Source: a virus
Taxonomy: Duplodnaviria > Caudoviricetes
Length of the DNA stretch: 30,872 bases
IMG/VR virus record: IMGVR_UViG_3300012665_000072
Span: 1 to 30,872 of that record
Strand: one strand, 5' to 3'
The notes below the pieces were generated by a model. It saw only the letters and a list, made by a program, of their open reading frames with translations. It was not told the origin of the DNA and did no database searches. Position numbers and translations under genes: made by a program. Of the stretch, positions 2,465 through 30,872 are shown piece by piece. Position 1 is the stretch's first letter. Each line of letters starts with the position of its first letter.

Positions 2465-2889
2465 TGAGATACTTACTGATCATATTACTGCTTGCTTCAT
2501 GCAGCCCGACGAAGAGATTCAACCGATTAATCGAGAAGTATCCTTATCTGATTACTTCAGACACTGTGGTGATCAGAGATACCATTACTCTATACGTCCC
2601 TGAGGTGCATACAGACACTGTGGTAACGTTAAAGGAACTTACTGACACCATTACTATCACTAACGAGAGAGTAACGGTAAAAGCATGGTACGTTCCAAAG
2701 GAAAAGAAGGTATATATCCAAGGAAAATGTGATCCTATTTACATCACTAAAATCGTTGATAGGAAGATACCGGTTAAGTATTATGAGAAGTATCCGTTTT
2801 GGAAGAAGCTAGTCAACAACATTTTAGCTTTTTTAATTATCTTTGTTATACTTTATACAGGGTATAGAATACTTAAAACATCGATATGA
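2464..2889 (+). CDS. Lipoprotein with C-terminal transmembrane helix; putative unimolecular spanin
   Basis: Signal peptide II MRYLLIILLLAS-C13, a beta-rich middle (DTVVIRDTITL, DTVVTLKELTDTITI) and a C-terminal hydrophobic helix ILAFLIIFVILYTGY. It lies directly upstream of the holin and endolysin. Confidence 0.65.
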   Translation: MRYLLIILLLASCSPTKRFNRLIEKYPYLITSDTVVIRDTITLYVPEVHTDTVVTLKELTDTITITNERVTVKAWYVPKEKKVYIQGKCDPIYITKIVDRKIPVKYYEKYPFWKKLVNNILAFLIIFVILYTGYRILKTSI

Positions 2890-3335
2890 AAACTAATACC
2901 ATAATCATTTTGTCAAGCTTTATCACGCTATTCGCGCCAATCGGACCATTGGTCACAATTGCATTAATTTCTATCGGCTTTGACTTCGGGTTTGGTATTT
3001 GGAGATCTATTAAGAGCAGACGCAAGGCAGGATCAACTGCTAAGGTAGGCGATATTATAACTAGTCAAAAGATGCTGGCTACTGGAATTAAATGTTTGAT
3101 TTATGCAGCAGCTATTGCATTCTTCTACTTGGTAGAGAAGTATATCGCTGGAGACATCATATCTCACTTCATATCAATCAATCTTTTACTTACCAAAGCA
3201 ATCGCATTGTTCTTTGTATTCATCGAAGTTAAGAGCATGAACGAGAGCTACAAAGATATTACCGGTAAAGACATACTAAAATCTTTTAGAGACTTTATAA
3301 CCGGACTTAAGAGCGAAAGCGATAAATGGCGATAA
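2886..3335 (+). CDS. Phage holin
   Basis: 149 aa with about three hydrophobic segments, a FDFGFGIWRS motif, FIEVKSMNE and a charged C-terminus. It is immediately upstream of the amidase. Confidence 0.75.
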   Translation: MKTNTIIILSSFITLFAPIGPLVTIALISIGFDFGFGIWRSIKSRRKAGSTAKVGDIITSQKMLATGIKCLIYAAAIAFFYLVEKYIAGDIISHFISINLLLTKAIALFFVFIEVKSMNESYKDITGKDILKSFRDFITGLKSESDKWR

Positions 3336-3336
3336 T

Positions 3337-4011
3337 ATGAAACTACCATCTAACATCAAGCAGGTCCCTATGAAGGACTCTCAGTACATTAAGACTGAGA
3401 CAAAGAAGAGCATGATCGTATTACATCACACTGCTGGAAACAGCTCAGGTGTAGGTACAATTAAGATGTGGGACAATGACGATAGAGGTCGTATTGCTAC
3501 ATGTGTAGTTATCTCAGGTAAAGGCCAATCGAAAGATACATATGACGGAGAGATCTGTCAGGCGTTCAGCTCAAAGTATTGGGGGTATCACTTAGGTCTT
3601 AAGCAAGACATCTTCAGAGCGAAGGGTGTTCCTTACAAATCAATTGACCCAATGTGTGTGGCTGTTGAGATATGTAACTGGGGACCGTTGACTAAGAAGG
3701 GTGATAAGTTCTACAACTATGTGAGCAGAGAAGTTCCGATTGATCAAGTATGTGAGCTAGACAAGCCATATAAAGGACGCAAGTACTACCATGCATACAC
3801 AGACGCTCAGATTGAATCTCTGCGTCAATTGATGTTGTACTGGGCAGAATTATATAAGATTGATCTGACGTATCGAGAAGAAGATATGTGGGACATTTCA
3901 GTAAGAGGGTTAAAGGGAGAGAACGGTGTATATAGCCACAACTCATTCCGCAAGGATAAGTCTGACATCTACCCATGTCCACGAATGATCGCTATGCTTA
4001 AGAGCCTTTAA
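3337..4011 (+). CDS. N-acetylmuramoyl-L-alanine amidase (Amidase_2 family) endolysin
   Basis: Zn-amidase motifs IVLHHTAG, WGYHLG, VAVEICNWG, YTDAQIESL and YSHNSFRKDKSDIYP. Confidence 0.88.
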   Translation: MKLPSNIKQVPMKDSQYIKTETKKSMIVLHHTAGNSSGVGTIKMWDNDDRGRIATCVVISGKGQSKDTYDGEICQAFSSKYWGYHLGLKQDIFRAKGVPYKSIDPMCVAVEICNWGPLTKKGDKFYNYVSREVPIDQVCELDKPYKGRKYYHAYTDAQIESLRQLMLYWAELYKIDLTYREEDMWDISVRGLKGENGVYSHNSFRKDKSDIYPCPRMIAMLKSL

Positions 4012-5988: not shown

Positions 5989-6196
5989 AAAGATATCTGT
6001 TGGTCCTGACTACATGAAGTGCATGCACTACGTTGTAGGACAACGCGTTCTCCGAGACGAGTATGAGATCGAGTCTATTATCAAGAACGATGATGGATCT
6101 ATTTCTATTTGGATCATGCAGGATGGCGCGATTGTTTGTTGGAAAAACTTCTCGGCCAATATGCCAATCTCAACAGAATACAAAATAGATTTCTAA
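5975..6196 (+). CDS. Hypothetical phage protein (73 aa, GTG start)
   Basis: LIRKISVGPDYMKCMHYVVGQ...WKNFSANMPISTEY. It overlaps both neighbours, with a TAATG junction to the next gene. Confidence 0.7.
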   Translation: MNLIRKISVGPDYMKCMHYVVGQRVLRDEYEIESIIKNDDGSISIWIMQDGAIVCWKNFSANMPISTEYKIDF

Positions 6197-6753
6197 TGAA
6201 AGCTCCCTACTGCTTCATCATAAAGCCGGTTGGCTTGAGGCGGTACGACAACATAAGACAATTCGGAGACTCCGAGTTTATTATTAGTACCTCTCAGGAA
6301 GACCATCGCGTATCCAATAGATTCGCTGAGGTTATCTCCGTGCCTATGTATTACGATGGTCCAATACAAGCAGGTGACACTGTGTGTGTTCACCACAACG
6401 TGTTTAAGTTCTACTACGATATGAAGGGTAGACAACGTAGTAGTTGGCATCACCTATCAGAAGACTTATTTATTGCTGAGCCTGATCAGATTTACCTATT
6501 TAAAAGAGGTGAAGAGTGGCAGGCACCTGAACCATTTGTATTTGTTAGACCAATCGAATCGGAAGATCGGATGTTTAATCAAACAGGCGGCCTAGAGCAA
6601 ATGTGGGGTGAGTTGGTTTACAAGAACGACAAGCTAGAAGAGGTTGAGCAAGGTGATATAGTATCATACATGCCTGACTGCGAGTATGAGTTTAAGATTG
6701 ACGATGAGATTCTTTACCGAATGTATAACCGGAACATATGTCTAAAAAAATAG
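6196..6753 (+). CDS. GroES-like co-chaperonin with two tandem GroES-like units (185 aa)
   Basis: The real start is the ATG at 6196 (TAATG overlap), not 6109. Two similar units are visible: FIIKPV...AEVISVP...IQAGDTVCV and VFVRPI...GELVYKN...VEQGDIVSY...EFKIDDEILYRM. Confidence 0.65.
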   Translation: MKAPYCFIIKPVGLRRYDNIRQFGDSEFIISTSQEDHRVSNRFAEVISVPMYYDGPIQAGDTVCVHHNVFKFYYDMKGRQRSSWHHLSEDLFIAEPDQIYLFKRGEEWQAPEPFVFVRPIESEDRMFNQTGGLEQMWGELVYKNDKLEEVEQGDIVSYMPDCEYEFKIDDEILYRMYNRNICLKK

Positions 6754-12795: not shown

Positions 12796-14238
12796 ATGGC
12801 TGGTATTTTAGCAGGCACTCCTGGGGTAAGTTTAACTCCAAGTGCACAAAAAGTTGCTATTCCGGATAACTACATCACGGATTTCAACTTCTTAAATCAA
12901 TTTCTTCCTGACACTTACGAGCAGGAATTCGAGCGTTACGGTAACCGTTCAATCGCATCTTTCTTGCGTATGGTTGGTGCTGAGCTTCCTACAAACTCTG
13001 ACTTAATCAAATGGGCAGAGCAAGGTCGTTTGCATACAAAGTACACAAATGTTATTCCTAGTTCAGTGGCTACTTCGGATACGGCAACTTTTACAATGCC
13101 GACAACGTCTCCGGCAACTCTTTGTAACTTCAGATTAAATCAAACTGTATTTTTATCTTCTCAGACAGTTGCTGCTAATTCAGCTAAAGCTGTTATTAGT
13201 GCAGTTGCATCAGATGGTTCTACATTTACAGTTAAATTTTACGATTCTGATGGTTCTCCATTTACACAAACTACTGAACTTGTAACTGCATTCGTTTACG
13301 GATCTGAGTTCCAAAAAGGAGTTGGTGGAATGGAAGGTTCTTTGGAGGCTCAAGATGTATTCTTCGACGTTAAACCAATCATCATCAAAGACAAGTATAC
13401 TGTATCAGGATCTGATATGGCACAAATCGGATGGGTTGAGGTAACAACTGAGAACGGAGCAACAGGATACCTTTGGTATATGAAGTCTGAGCACGAAACT
13501 CGTTTACGTTTCGAGGATTACTTAGAAATGGCAATGGTAGAGGGTGTTCCTGCTGAAACTTCTTCTGCTGCATTAGCTTACTTATCTCCTTCTGACAAAA
13601 CAACGTTTGCTGGTGGTACTGCTGGTTCAACTGCTGCTGGTACTAAAGGTTTATTCTACGAAATTGAAGACCGTGGAAATGTTTGGTCTGGTGGTATTCC
13701 ATCTGCATTGTCTGACTTCGATACAATCGTACAACGTTTAGACAAACAAGGAGCTATCGCTGAGAACACATTGTTCATCAACCGTCAGTTCTCTTTCGAT
13801 ATCGACGATATGTTGGCTGCACAAAACTCTTACGGAGCAGGTGGTACGTCTTACGGATTGTTTGATAACGATGAGCAAATGGCATTGAACTTAGGTTTCA
13901 CTAGTTTCCGTCGTGGATATGACTTCTACAAAACAGACTGGAAATACTTGAACGACGCTACACTTCGTGGTGGTATCGTTGGTGGAGCTGTAAATGGGGT
14001 TTTAGTTCCTGCTGGAACAATGAACGTTTATGACCAAGTTCTTGGTAAAAACGCGAAACGTCCATTCTTACACGTTCGTTACCGTGCTTCTGAATCTGAA
14101 AACCGTCGTTACAAAACATGGATGACAGGATCAGCAGGTGGTGCACAAACAAGTGACCTAGATGCAATGGAGGTTAACTTCTTGTCAGAGCGAGCGCTTT
14201 GTACATTAGGAGCTAACAACTTCTTCATCTTCAAATAA
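12796..14238 (+). CDS. Major capsid protein (480 aa)
   Basis: Position after the scaffold gene, strongly biased codon usage, motifs EQEFERYGNRSIASFLRMVGAE, PIIIKDKYTVSGSD and FLSERALCTLGANNF, and a terminator downstream. Confidence 0.88.
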   Translation: MAGILAGTPGVSLTPSAQKVAIPDNYITDFNFLNQFLPDTYEQEFERYGNRSIASFLRMVGAELPTNSDLIKWAEQGRLHTKYTNVIPSSVATSDTATFTMPTTSPATLCNFRLNQTVFLSSQTVAANSAKAVISAVASDGSTFTVKFYDSDGSPFTQTTELVTAFVYGSEFQKGVGGMEGSLEAQDVFFDVKPIIIKDKYTVSGSDMAQIGWVEVTTENGATGYLWYMKSEHETRLRFEDYLEMAMVEGVPAETSSAALAYLSPSDKTTFAGGTAGSTAAGTKGLFYEIEDRGNVWSGGIPSALSDFDTIVQRLDKQGAIAENTLFINRQFSFDIDDMLAAQNSYGAGGTSYGLFDNDEQMALNLGFTSFRRGYDFYKTDWKYLNDATLRGGIVGGAVNGVLVPAGTMNVYDQVLGKNAKRPFLHVRYRASESENRRYKTWMTGSAGGAQTSDLDAMEVNFLSERALCTLGANNFFIFK

Positions 14239-24591: not shown

Positions 24592-25314
24592 ATGGAAGAT
24601 ACGTTATCTTATTACAACTATGCCAATGGGTGGACATCTAGATGGTCCTACGTCCCTGAGTGGATGACTCATATGAATAGTAATTTCTATACATTTAAGA
24701 ATGGGGATCTATACATACACAACCTAAACCAAAATCGAAATAACTTCTACGGAGTTCCCGGAAAGTCTACGTTAAGTACTATATTCAATATAGAGCCAAC
24801 TACTATCAAGAAGTTCAAGAATATATTTATAGATAGTAATGAGCCATGGAAGGCTACGATGCATACCAATCTAGACGAAGGCTTTGCTGATTACGACTAC
24901 TACGACAAGAAAGAAGGTAGATGGTATGCATATATCAGACGACCACTTGGGGATAATAATGCTCAGTTGCTATCAACCCAAGGTATTGGAAATGTTATAA
25001 ACTATACAGCTCCTACAATATATTTTAACGTAGATATACAAATAAATCTAAATCAAGGAGACAAGGTATATAAAATAGTCGGATCATCATTAGTTGAATT
25101 AGGTACAGTATCAGCATTTACTCAAAATGCAATATCACTTAGTAGTATTGTTTCAACACCTTCAGTTGGTGATACTATCGTCATAGTTAAGAATGCAGTA
25201 GCTGAGTCATTTGGCCCTAGAGGATACTACCTACAAGTTGACTTCGAGAACAATAAAACATATGAGGTAACAATGTTTGCCGTTGGGGCATCAGTATTCA
25301 AAAGTTTTCCTTAA
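24592..25314 (+). CDS. Tail protein resembling the C-terminal part of the stabilisation/nozzle protein (240 aa)
   Basis: TLSY....NGWTSRWSYVPE, FYTFKNGDLYIHN, RNNFYG, IFNIEPTTIKKFKNI, KKEGRWYAYI and GPRGYYLQV match, from memory, C-termini of podovirus stabilisation proteins. Confidence 0.6.
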   Translation: MEDTLSYYNYANGWTSRWSYVPEWMTHMNSNFYTFKNGDLYIHNLNQNRNNFYGVPGKSTLSTIFNIEPTTIKKFKNIFIDSNEPWKATMHTNLDEGFADYDYYDKKEGRWYAYIRRPLGDNNAQLLSTQGIGNVINYTAPTIYFNVDIQINLNQGDKVYKIVGSSLVELGTVSAFTQNAISLSSIVSTPSVGDTIVIVKNAVAESFGPRGYYLQVDFENNKTYEVTMFAVGASVFKSFP

Positions 25315-25319
25315 ATTTG
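25312..25319 (+). promoter_or_regulatory. Bacteroidota -7 promoter element TAAATTTG overlapping the upstream stop codon
   Basis: The TAA stop (25312-25314) forms the first bases of the motif. The ATG follows 3 nt later, at 25323. Confidence 0.55.
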
Positions 25320-25322
25320 TGT

Positions 25323-25724
25323 ATGGAAGTTAGGTTCTTAAACGAAGGTGATTACGATGTGTTATCATCTTGGTGGAAGGATTGGAGATGGACTCCACCG
25401 CCACGAGATTTCTTACCTCAGGATGGAACCGGTGGTTTGATGGTATCGAAGGATGGGATTGAAATATGTGCTGGGTTTATATATTTTACAAACTCAAAGA
25501 CAGCAATCATAGAGTTCATTGTATCTAACTTTCAGTACAAGAATAAAGACAGGAAGGAAGCTATAGAGTTTCTTATAAATACACTTACTGAGGTAGCGAA
25601 AGAAACGAACGGATGTAAGTACATTTATACATCTCTAAAGAACCAAAACCTACTAAATAGTTTTTCAGCTTGTGGCTACCAAACAGGAAGCACCGGTTGT
25701 ATAGAAATGATTAAAACATTATAA
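25323..25724 (+). CDS. GNAT-fold (acetyltransferase-like) protein (133 aa)
   Basis: MEVRFLNEGDYDVL start, strands GLMVSKDGIEICAGFIY and IEFIVSN, helix AIEFLINTLTEVAKE, and a FSACGY end. It sits between the tail and ejection genes, as T7 gp13-like genes do. Confidence 0.6.
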   Translation: MEVRFLNEGDYDVLSSWWKDWRWTPPPRDFLPQDGTGGLMVSKDGIEICAGFIYFTNSKTAIIEFIVSNFQYKNKDRKEAIEFLINTLTEVAKETNGCKYIYTSLKNQNLLNSFSACGYQTGSTGCIEMIKTL

Positions 25725-27952: not shown

Positions 27953-30872
27953 ATGGCTAAACAATGGACACCACCAAGTGATGCAGCAGTAACTGCAAAT
28001 AATAAATTTGTACCACCATCAGATGCTGTTGAAGTAAAAAAAAAAGAGGTTTCACAATCAACATTGGATCAAGACAATACTTCATCGGATCGCTTAAACA
28101 ACACAACAACAAGGCCTACGGCATCTTCATCTTTAAAAGGTAATGGTATATATAGAATACCCGGACAACCGGAAGAAGTATTCTACAAGAAAGAGGATGA
28201 TGGTTGGTATAAAAAACAATATGGTGTCTTTGACTATAAGAAAGTCACTGATCCAAATAGAATTAAAAAAATTGAGGCTAATACCGTAGAGTATAATCCT
28301 AAACAAAAAAATGTAAATAAATATTCATTTGAAAATACTCCATCTGTACAGGAGAAGCCACAAGAATGGGTAGATAATAAAGGTAATAAAGGACCTAGTG
28401 AAAGAAATAGTATTGAGTACTGGGACAATTTATTGGCTAATAAAAATATAGATCAAAAGACCTATGATTTCCATGCTGATCGACTTGCATCAATGGGAAT
28501 ATACAAGTCTGTATCAAAAGCTCTTCAACCAAAAGCACAACCAAAGCAATCTGATATACAAGCACAAAAAGTATTCAATGAATCTTTTAGTTCATTATCA
28601 GATACTGATCCTGAATATTTACGACGCAAAGCAGAAAAAGATAAAATAAATAATTCAATCAGCAACATTGATCTCAACCTTGTTGGTATGGATGAGGAGG
28701 ATGTAGTCCCTAAATTAAAACAGTCAATTAAAGACTATTGGTATTTAGAGGTTGATGAGTCAGGTGTTGGTTATGATGAAGTTCTAGTTAGGAATAAAAT
28801 AACCGGTGAAAGCAAAAAGATAAGCCTTGACAACTGGACTTCTGAACGAGACAATGAAGAGTCTAAAATTCTTCGTGGTTTCTTAGATGCTCAAATGAAT
28901 TCAAAGGAATATACTGAAGCTTATAAGAGAGTAAATGATTTAAGATCAGAGATAGCAGACGCAACACCTACTGATCGTATTGCATTAACTAAAAAGTTAG
29001 TTGATGCTCAAGCAAAGTTAACAAAAGAGAAAAATAAACGAGCGGCATATGTGAGCAGTGATAAATATTTATCAGCAGCAATATATGATAAGAATGCTCA
29101 AGAGAATATCAAAACTGATTTGGCGGTAACTCAATTAAGAACTGAGGATTACAAAGAAAAAATAAAAGAATACCAAAAATATTCAACTGATGTAAAAGAT
29201 TCTTACACCCAAGGAAAGATATCTAAAGAGGACTACTACCAAAACTATGTGCCTAAATTAAAGGCTGAAAAAGAAATGTTGTTTGAAGAACAACAAAAGT
29301 TAAGAAACGATTACATTCAAATAAAGAGCGACCAACAGTCAATTGATGAAGTTGCTGGTAATACATTTGCTATTGAATCAAATAGAGGAAATGTTTTAAC
29401 AGGTACAGCTTCAGCTATATTAAGGGGGATTGAATCATCTGTTAGATTTGGTTTAGAAGGTTTATCAGAGGAGGCAGGAGGTGTCCCAGAAGGGTCACTA
29501 AAAGGAGTATTTCAGCAATTAGCTCCGGGTTCAGTAAGTGAATTATATACCAGTTCAGCAAACAGAAGTAAATTCGAACAAATTGTTTTTGGTTTAGCTG
29601 AATCAGGTGGATCAGCTCTAGCAGGAATAGCATCAGGTGGTCCAGTAGGTTCGTTGATGGGCTTATACGCATCTTCGTATACCAACATGAAAGATCAGAT
29701 GAGCACAGAGACATTTAAAGATGTCCCTGAATGGCAGAAGATCCTTATGTCAAGCGTGTATGGTGCAACTATCGGAACATTAGAAGAGATAGGTATAGGT
29801 AAATGGTTTACAAAGTCACCGGCTGGAAAAGGTTTAACAAATTGGATACTTAAGAAAGTAATATCTGAACTACCTGAAAATGCTACAGCTGAAGCTATAG
29901 ACTTAGCTATCAAGAAAAGCTTTAATACGGCTGTTGCAAATGGATTAATTCAGGTTACATCAGCAGGAATTGTGGAGGGATCAACCGAGTTAGCTCAGGA
30001 AGGTGCTGATATGGTTTATAAAGATGTATTCAATAAGCTTAATGAGAAAAAATTCTTTGAAAATCCTAATACATGGGAAGGTGTTTTATCTAGACTAGGT
30101 GAAAGTTTTGTTCTTGGGTTTGCTGGTGGTGCAGGAATGCAGTCCATCACACAAACTACACAGGTAGCAAAGAACGCTATTACAATGAATCAACTCAACA
30201 ATATTGAGAACCTGATTGAAAACCCAAACATCAAGGACATCTATAAAATGAACTTGAAGGATCAAATTCTTTCAGGTGAAATAACTAGCACTCAAGCAAA
30301 AGAACAATTACAAAAATTGGACGAACTTGAGGCTACAGTTAATAAGATACCAAACAATGTAAAGGCAGAGAATAAATACCAAGCGTTCCAATTATTGAAC
30401 GAAAGAGAAGATATACAAAAAGAAATTGCAGGGAAAGACCCAGCGCTTGTTGCTGCTCAAACTGAGCGTATCAATGCGATCAATGATGAACTAAAAACAA
30501 TCAGTCAAAATGCCGTTCAAGAGCAAACAACAAGTGAAGTTCCTGTACAGCCAGAAACCGGAGTTAGCGAAGAAGTGGAGGGAGGAGTACCCGAATCAGA
30601 AACTCAAGAGACTTCCGGAGAAACTGTCGGACAAGAAGGTCAAGCCGAGCAAGCTAAAGCAGCGCTTGATGAAAGGAAAAAGAATGCTATAGAGGAAGAA
30701 AAGGCTAGGATGTCTAAAAGAATATCCCGACTTCAAGACGAGCTTTCTAATGTATCAAGACTTAAACCACTTTATAGGTCAGTAAGAAAATCATCAATAA
30801 GAGAGCAAACTAAATTGCTTGATTTATTAGAGTCAGACCCTAAGCAATATGCCCGAAAACAATTGAAAGAAA
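27953..30872 (+). CDS. Giant internal virion/ejection protein (at least 973 aa, 3'-truncated; absent from the ORF track)
   Basis: ATG at 27953 in the context AATAAA-ATG. It reads MAKQWTPPSDAAVTANNKFVPPSDAVEVKKKE... and I found no stop in the segments I translated. It has coiled coils, G/A-rich hydrophobic segments (GLAESGGSALAGIASGGPVGSLMGLYAS) and an EGSTELAQEG motif. Confidence 0.85.
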   Translation, partial: MAKQWTPPSDAAVTANNKFVPPSDAVEVKKKEVSQSTLDQDNTSSDRLNNTTTRPTASSSLKGNGIYRIPGQPEEVFYKKEDDGWYKKQYGVFDYKKVTDPNRIKKIEANTVEYNPKQKNVNKYSFENTPSVQEKPQEWVDNKGNKGPSERNSIEYWDNLLANKNIDQKTYDFHADRLASMGIYKSVSKALQPKAQPKQSDIQAQKVFNESFSSLSDTDPEYLRRKAEKDKINNSISNIDLNLVGMDEEDVVPKLKQSIKDYWYLEVDESGVGYDEVLVRNKITGESKKISLDNWTSERDNEESKILRGFLDAQMNSKEYTEAYKRVNDLRSEIADATPTDRIALTKKLVDAQAKLTKEKNKRAAYVSSDKYLSAAIYDKNAQENIKTDLAVTQLRTEDYKEKIKEYQKYSTDVKDSYTQGKISKEDYYQNYVPKLKAEKEMLFEEQQKLRNDYIQIKSDQQSIDEVAGNTFAIESNRGNVLTGTASAILRGIESSVRFGLEGLSEEAGGVPEGSLKGVFQQLAPGSVSELYTSSANRSKFEQIVFGLAESGGSALAGIASGGPVGSLMGLYASSYTNMKDQMSTETFKDVPEWQKILMSSVYGATIGTLEEIGIGKWFTKSPAGKGLTNWILKKVISELPENATAEAIDLAIKKSFNTAVANGLIQVTSAGIVEGSTELAQEGADMVYKDVFNKLNEKKFFENPNTWEGVLSRLGESFVLGFAGGAGMQSITQTTQVAKNAITMNQLNNIENLIENPNIKDIYKMNLKDQILSGEITSTQAKEQLQKLDELEATVNKIPNNVKAENKYQAFQLLNEREDIQKEIAGKDPALVAAQTERINAINDELKTISQNAVQEQTTSEVPVQPETGVSEEVEGGVPESETQETSGETVGQEGQAEQAKAALDERKKNAIEEEKARMSKRISRLQDELSNVSRLKPLYRSVRKSSIREQTKLLDLLESDPKQYARKQLKE
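28036..28045 (+). other. A10 homopolymer (GTA AAA AAA AAA GAG), candidate -1 frameshift or transcriptional slippage site
   Basis: Contains the heptamer A_AAA_AAA in the reading frame. The -1 frame stays open for 32 codons, to the TAA at 28141-28143. Confidence 0.45.
30510..30692 (+). CDS. Nested (+1 frame) small basic protein, MPFKSKQQVKFLYSQKPELAKKW... (60 aa)
   Basis: ATG with an A-rich leader (CTAAAAACAATCAGTCAAA-ATG, A at -3). It has 16 Lys and 4 Arg in 60 aa and resembles stand-alone small phage proteins of the MPFKSxxQ.....P..A..W....P.....LP type (from memory). Confidence 0.6.
   Translation: MPFKSKQQVKFLYSQKPELAKKWREEYPNQKLKRLPEKLSDKKVKPSKLKQRLMKGKRML

Follow-up and report, generated by a model that had tools for sequence, protein, structure and literature searches.

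We found that a giant open reading frame (ORF) at the end of a phage contig carries, in its +1 frame, a complete small gene that is almost certainly real and under purifying selection, as the original prediction had proposed; selection on the +1 frame and conservation in relatives sustain this conclusion (see below). We lean slightly towards a fuller reading, in which the gene has its own internal ATG and encodes an accessory head or packaging protein whose helical core would dock on a partner and whose lysine tail would bind DNA. The window, i.e., the whole stretch of DNA that was analysed (30,872 nt), is an entire virus record, IMGVR_UViG_3300012665_000072, about 51% complete. On one strand it contains terminase, portal and virion structural genes and a crAss-type muzzle domain; a Bacteroidota host was inferred from its Flavobacterium phage relatives and from the scarcity of Shine-Dalgarno motifs (4% of true starts). 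The muzzle C-terminal domain (PF25729, E 2e-14) is located at 24592-25314, in a group of non-crAss phages of 60-70 kb. A holin and amidase pair lies at 2886-4011, upstream of the packaging genes, and a GroES-like co-chaperonin gene is found at 6109-6753, immediately 5' of terminase. The features considered here, in window coordinates, are the following:

27953..30872, plus strand: giant host ORF, 973 codons visible, running off the contig end.
30510..30692, plus strand: nested gene of 60 aa, net charge +15, MPFKS family.
30510..30617, plus strand: conserved core, the first 36 codons, with host third-position variation suppressed about ninefold and an island of DNA likeness that begins at the ATG.
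30489..30509, plus strand: leader, A-rich, unstructured and Shine-Dalgarno-free, with A at -3; it includes a +1-frame TAA at 30492-30494.
25317..25724, plus strand: conserved neighbour gene of 135 aa (phrog_17252), outside the element and used as an independent anchor for fetching relatives.

The nested ORF lies wholly within the giant ORF, after 854 open host codons. Relatives of the giant ORF range from 1,800 to over 3,000 aa, its product is a probable virion cargo protein, and its counterpart in the cultured Flavobacterium phage elemoA_7-9A is annotated as 'structural protein'. Searched as the portion left by the contig end, including for homology to a characterised ejection protein, the giant ORF showed no Pfam or PHROG match, and 'ejection protein', its name in the original prediction, is a putative label. 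In locus L099 (12524-14325) the giant gene is split, upstream of the nested gene, into two overlapping frames (622 and 2,023+ codons), due to either a frameshift or an assembly error.

Inspection of the window confirmed the reading of the nested ORF: the translation of 30510-30692 is the predicted 60-aa peptide with its ATG and stop, the ORF overlies the acidic host-frame stretch described for it, and the leader is A-rich with A at -3. The claim that many C/G-ending codons in the host frame betray dual coding failed, because GC3 in the overlap (0.26) is practically equal to that of the remaining giant gene (0.24). An ATG followed by 60 open codons was retained in 10% of 20,000 synonymous shuffles of the host frame (P about 0.10), and 11 related giant genes each contained 3-12 ATG-started +1 ORFs of at least 30 codons, mostly basic. 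On the window sequence alone, the length and basicity of the nested ORF are not beyond chance; the window thus proves little by itself, and the evidence for a nested gene rests on comparison with relatives.

A search of viral contigs with the peptide revealed 361 relatives. The best 80 of these loci, a set biased by its selection, all held an ATG-started copy (80/80) of 41-63 aa, +1-nested in a long ORF. Host-frame routes to unbiased loci were unproductive (a single-protein query gave no matches and the alignment was too divergent), and the neighbour gene was therefore taken as the anchor, with a query alignment derived partly from the peptide-selected set. The best 80 of 563 neighbour-selected loci, together with 14 from a single query, made 89 distinct loci; 65 of them, in which 1,250 or more giant-gene codons were visible, could be evaluated, and 24 were too short, one of these also having a nested copy. 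An intact ATG-started member was present in the +1 frame of the giant gene in 47 of the 65, so that the expectation of a stop-free +1 frame with its ATG in homologous giant genes held for these and not for the other 18. Among the 18, a deletion has removed the 5' half in loci L093 and L094, and the copy in L136 is broken; this broken copy was the only member found when the 31 records without a visible nested copy were searched. None of seven near-complete relatives without a nested copy (0/7) held a family member elsewhere in the genome, which, with the 18 loci lacking it, indicates that the nested gene is dispensable. Genomes that carry it have one copy. Within the gene for the 3,694-aa 'structural protein' of elemoA_7-9A lies an unannotated copy of 42 aa, starting at 54224 of record MT497017, in agreement with the expectation that annotation would miss the gene, and weak matches were found in 68 Flavobacterium phage records. 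In the literature within reach of our search, outside which most subscription papers lie, the nested gene was described nowhere. Two observations concern individual copies. The elemoA_7-9A giant gene has two more degenerate +1 starts upstream of the intact copy (L082, 14605 and 13987), one of them followed by a stop after 10 codons, which are signs of tandem duplication and slot decay. In one nested subfamily (L082, L095, L115 and L167) a conserved cysteine pair (CY...W[DN]C), which might form a disulfide or bind a metal, lies between the two predicted helices.

Selection on the two frames was compared over the first 36 codons in 68 distinct peptide-selected and 27 neighbour-selected sequences of the same subfamily. 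The nested frame had pN/pS values of 0.16 and 0.10, respectively, against 2.7 and 5.1 for the host frame, and amino-acid identity was 83-90% in the nested frame versus 55-59% in the host frame. The suppressed synonymous variation that had been proposed as a check was evident: across the same 155 pairs with alignable upstream sequence, differences at host third positions dropped from 0.502 upstream to 0.054 in the overlap, and host first-position differences stayed at 0.31. As judged from these alignments, the pattern is the one expected for a conserved +1 frame with the host frame merely kept open, and the giant ORF would read the nested gene as an unconstrained linker. At the DNA level, many contigs from four runs align only from 30507-30510 to about 30555-30608.

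The start regions suggest that translation of the nested gene likely begins at an internal ATG of its own. The start context was xAT-GCC, and never xAC, in all of 130 nested loci (130/130, some contigs having been fetched twice). Against 6,505 other +1 ATGs the window leader ranked at the 99th percentile, and against 405 true starts at the 48th; 85% of 95 distinct nested leaders exceeded the 90th percentile of other +1 ATGs, as did 84% of true starts. Predicted folding of the start region was also weak (-1.9 versus -6.4 kcal/mol). The nested leaders fit the initiation signals described for Flavobacterium johnsoniae and the Bacteroidetes in the available text of PMC6847099, namely A at -3 and low structure. 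The conserved start codon with initiation signals that is looked for in embedded genes is therefore present. An internal promoter was also sought: the promoter motif TAnnTTTG occurred within 220 nt upstream in 7 of the 130 loci, no more often than in farther windows, and not in the window itself.

Two readings would deny the peptide a life of its own. The island of DNA likeness at 30507-30608, shared by many unrelated contigs, could mean that conservation acts on a DNA or RNA element, with the peptide incidental. The variation, however, is concentrated at nested-frame third positions (pS about 0.6), which argues for selection at the protein level, and the start region is predicted to be unstructured; the codon-position pattern refutes this reading, which we regard as extremely improbable. 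No RNA is listed as occupying the region. A programmed +1 frameshift would instead give the giant protein an alternative C-terminus, its first 850 residues being followed by the basic peptide. In most loci the +1 frame is indeed free of stops for a number of codons ahead of the ATG, and P0010, a giant homologue of 1,075 aa, ends in frame with the peptide, although this single cluster comes from one contig and could reflect a split gene or faulty assembly. Such a frameshift is nevertheless quite improbable: besides the invariant retention of the ATG, a +1-frame stop directly precedes it in 6 of the 130 loci, no shift motif is shared (A7 runs in 8/130, CCCT/CTTT in 7/130), and the family domain is N-terminal nearly everywhere.

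The family to which the peptide belongs is large. A profile of the nested peptides matched 1,725 clusters at E<=0.001, bearing out the suggestion that homologues exist; among the 148 of these clusters that were listed, 97 were of 80 aa or less and 128 started with MPF. The domain nearly always begins at residue 1, whether the protein is a free one of 40-80 aa or a longer one that the domain heads; these N-terminal fusions include a lytic transglycosylase and DUF6321 proteins. With a stand-alone query, 80 loci comprised 61 free-standing members (8 of them flagged for a long upstream open frame and judged free-standing by hand), 14 nested and 5 fused. Membership of a widespread stand-alone MPFKS family, suggested in the original prediction, is thus supported by the profile matches and by the mostly free-standing loci. 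The residues M1, P2, F3, S5, Q8, P17, A20, L35 and P36 form the conserved core of the peptide, and members of the family were found in phages of Flavobacterium, cyanobacteria, Streptomyces and Mycobacterium. Free-standing members lie unannotated in P-RSP2, S-CBS2 and C75C1 (L256 6001, L257 6001 and L174 5001).

The AlphaFold model of the peptide (pLDDT 83) has helices at residues 6-15 and 17-26 and a less certain tail, the predicted structure beyond the helices consisting of an LP motif and then a basic tail. Fold searches revealed no match at Z>=2 and none at E<=0.001 in PDB or BFVD, the top BFVD rows being uncharacterised phage proteins; PDB sequence matches proved to be summed repeats of designed beta-propellers, no single stretch of which passes, and were discarded. 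The peptide had no Pfam match, and the test of DUF3008 (PF11450), a lead from the ESM Atlas only (score 0.82 on 15% of members), failed. The window peptide itself gave no match to PHROG HMMs at E<=0.01. Many family members gave weak phrog_1375 matches, and alignment A7 matched Barnyard gp9 (PHROG 1375) with an HHalign probability of 95% (E 3e-8, 36 columns), so that the family is linked to PHROG 1375 by homology at the profile level. A phrog_1375 row for crAss001 (E 0.006, within a 535-aa frame) was dropped, since the same search matched 5 of 14 control genomes. Weak relatives were 201phi2-1 gp383 (E 7e-5) and phiKZ gp165.1 (E 0.009), both small reverse-strand genes (L280 2127-2390 and L281 2129-2305), on which our search found no literature.

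The distribution of nested and free-standing copies points to a probable origin by capture rather than by overprinting. At least six subfamilies occupy the same slot in the giant gene. When 27 nested and 30 free-standing peptides were placed in one tree, eight changes of label were required, supported branches forcing at least three of them, and the hypothesis of one nested clade was rejected (p-AU 0.024; 46 columns, 57 rows). In L084 the upstream host region is 67% identical to that of the window, yet a different subfamily fills the slot. In L217 a homologous giant gene is followed, 7 nt past its stop, by a free-standing copy that is close to its nested counterparts in L148 and L161. The -1 frame, which corresponds to that of the giant gene, contained 3-10 stops in all 12 free-standing copies compared (12/12). 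Neither the lack of homologues outside the overlap nor the range narrower than that of the host gene that mark a de novo overprinted gene was found. Six other loci (L198, L219, L224, L232, L238 and L220), some with a GC content of 43-55%, are nested, yet the 330 upstream giant residues gave no BLAST match to the window's group; they are possibly separate captures or very old ones.

A role in the head or in packaging is, on balance, the function we would choose by a small degree, and the molecular role is the weakest step of our best explanation; the 'DNA-condensing core protein' of the original prediction is plausible. A terminase, portal or head gene was among the two nearest long ORFs on each side in 18 of 32 hand-picked non-nested loci, a count with no background rate, viral contigs being enriched for terminase and portal genes. 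Patience gp10 (PHROG 1375), a distant homologue of the nested peptide, has its gene after that for the portal protein; it is expressed, and the accessible part of PMC4324244 counts it among the virion proteins, although Table S1 there gives four stringent peptides at 30 min and two at 2.5 h in infected cells and only one in particles; its lysine richness may limit tryptic detection. The product of 201phi2-1 gp383, unlike its neighbour, carries no virion-protein mark. A predicted complex of the peptide with the probable major capsid protein (window 12796-14238) scored 0.00, which counts neither way.

The main rival to a head or packaging role accepts a real, internally initiated gene and has its protein act in the infected cell, on phage or host nucleic acid, a defence protein or a host enzyme, rather than as a virion part. 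The gp10 peptide counts, highest at 30 min, agree with it, as do the cluster B mycobacteriophage homologues located near 60 kb of 68-kb genomes, and patchy presence with subfamily swapping would fit a conflict gene. We consider it rather unlikely, given the strong purifying selection within a subfamily, the frequent packaging-gene neighbours, the N-terminal fusions (one to a lytic transglycosylase) and a range of phages, from those of Flavobacterium and cyanobacteria to those of Streptomyces and Mycobacterium, for which a generic virion or DNA partner fits better than one host target. Far less probable is the proposal of the original prediction that the gene was born by overprinting on the giant gene, as a new gene on an old frame, and that its product binds the acidic linker that the same DNA specifies. 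Charge does favour it at first sight: over the overlap the host frame was net acidic in 26 of 30 loci, with a nested peptide of +8 to +15. The acidic 'linker' would, however, be a by-product, arising because lysine codons are read one base back, and the host frame is unconstrained, net basic in the other 4 of the 30 and partly deleted in two relatives (L093 and L094). The homologues, moreover, are mostly free-standing, in unrelated phages, and the nested copies are not one clade. The free-standing homologues and the unconstrained host frame largely refute this proposal of birth and binding.

Among known systems, the architecture is like that of lambda Rz/Rz1; the nested gene itself is conserved and unannotated. 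In both cases a small gene lies wholly inside another, in its +1 frame and over a tolerant linker, and the available text of the spanin survey (PMC6139136) describes embedded, overlapped and separated forms that are often missed by annotation. Rz and Rz1, however, form one complex and are of similar scale, whereas here the host gene product is 2,000-3,700 aa, the nested gene is dispensable and a partnership with the host protein is unreported. The family also mixes nested and free-standing members, and in that text of the survey no spanin family mixes embedded with other architectures. The peptide was rejected as a spanin, having no hydrophobic signal or Cys, and the holin and amidase are 26 kb away. 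Members of PHROG 1375 (Barnyard gp9 and Patience gp10) are similarly small, basic and often encoded after the portal gene, but the known ones are free-standing. The Patience gp4/Adjutor gp4 capsid accessory protein, which in the accessible part of PMC11965321 is small and folds on binding, offers a model for how the peptide might act; a direct link was discarded, there being no sequence or fold match and the Patience homologue being gp10. De novo overprinted viral genes also draw two proteins from one DNA stretch, but in the available descriptions their nested frame is young, and here it appears old and constrained.

Under our preferred explanation, ribosomes would start at 30510 inside the late transcript by means of the A-rich leader and yield a free 7-kDa protein; its two-helix conserved core would dock on a partner, and its basic lysine tail would bind phage DNA during packaging or inside the head. 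The small gene would be the older one, captured once its stop codons were gone and the giant frame ran on through it. Subfamilies would then replace one another in the slot by recombination, since the giant protein would need only an open frame. More tentatively, and with rather less than even confidence, we suggest that the giant virion gene of a large group of aquatic Bacteroidota phages has a standing cargo slot, where an older free-standing gene was swallowed, is independently translated and can be swapped or lost as long as the giant frame remains open. Nesting would then result from repeated capture, and the two-helix module may be a general head-targeting, DNA-binding tag that very distant phages use either by itself or as the N-terminal part of virion cargo. 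The function can be tested directly, because there is a cultured phage-host pair (elemoA_7-9A and Flavobacterium sp. BAL314) and the start codon can be removed without altering the giant protein. A large phage protein family has been missed by annotation in both its nested (elemoA) and its free-standing (P-RSP2, S-CBS2 and C75C1) forms. Capture of an old gene by read-through would add a second way for nested genes to arise, one represented in hundreds of phage genomes, whose natural free-standing, nested, swapped, broken and deleted states are open to comparison.
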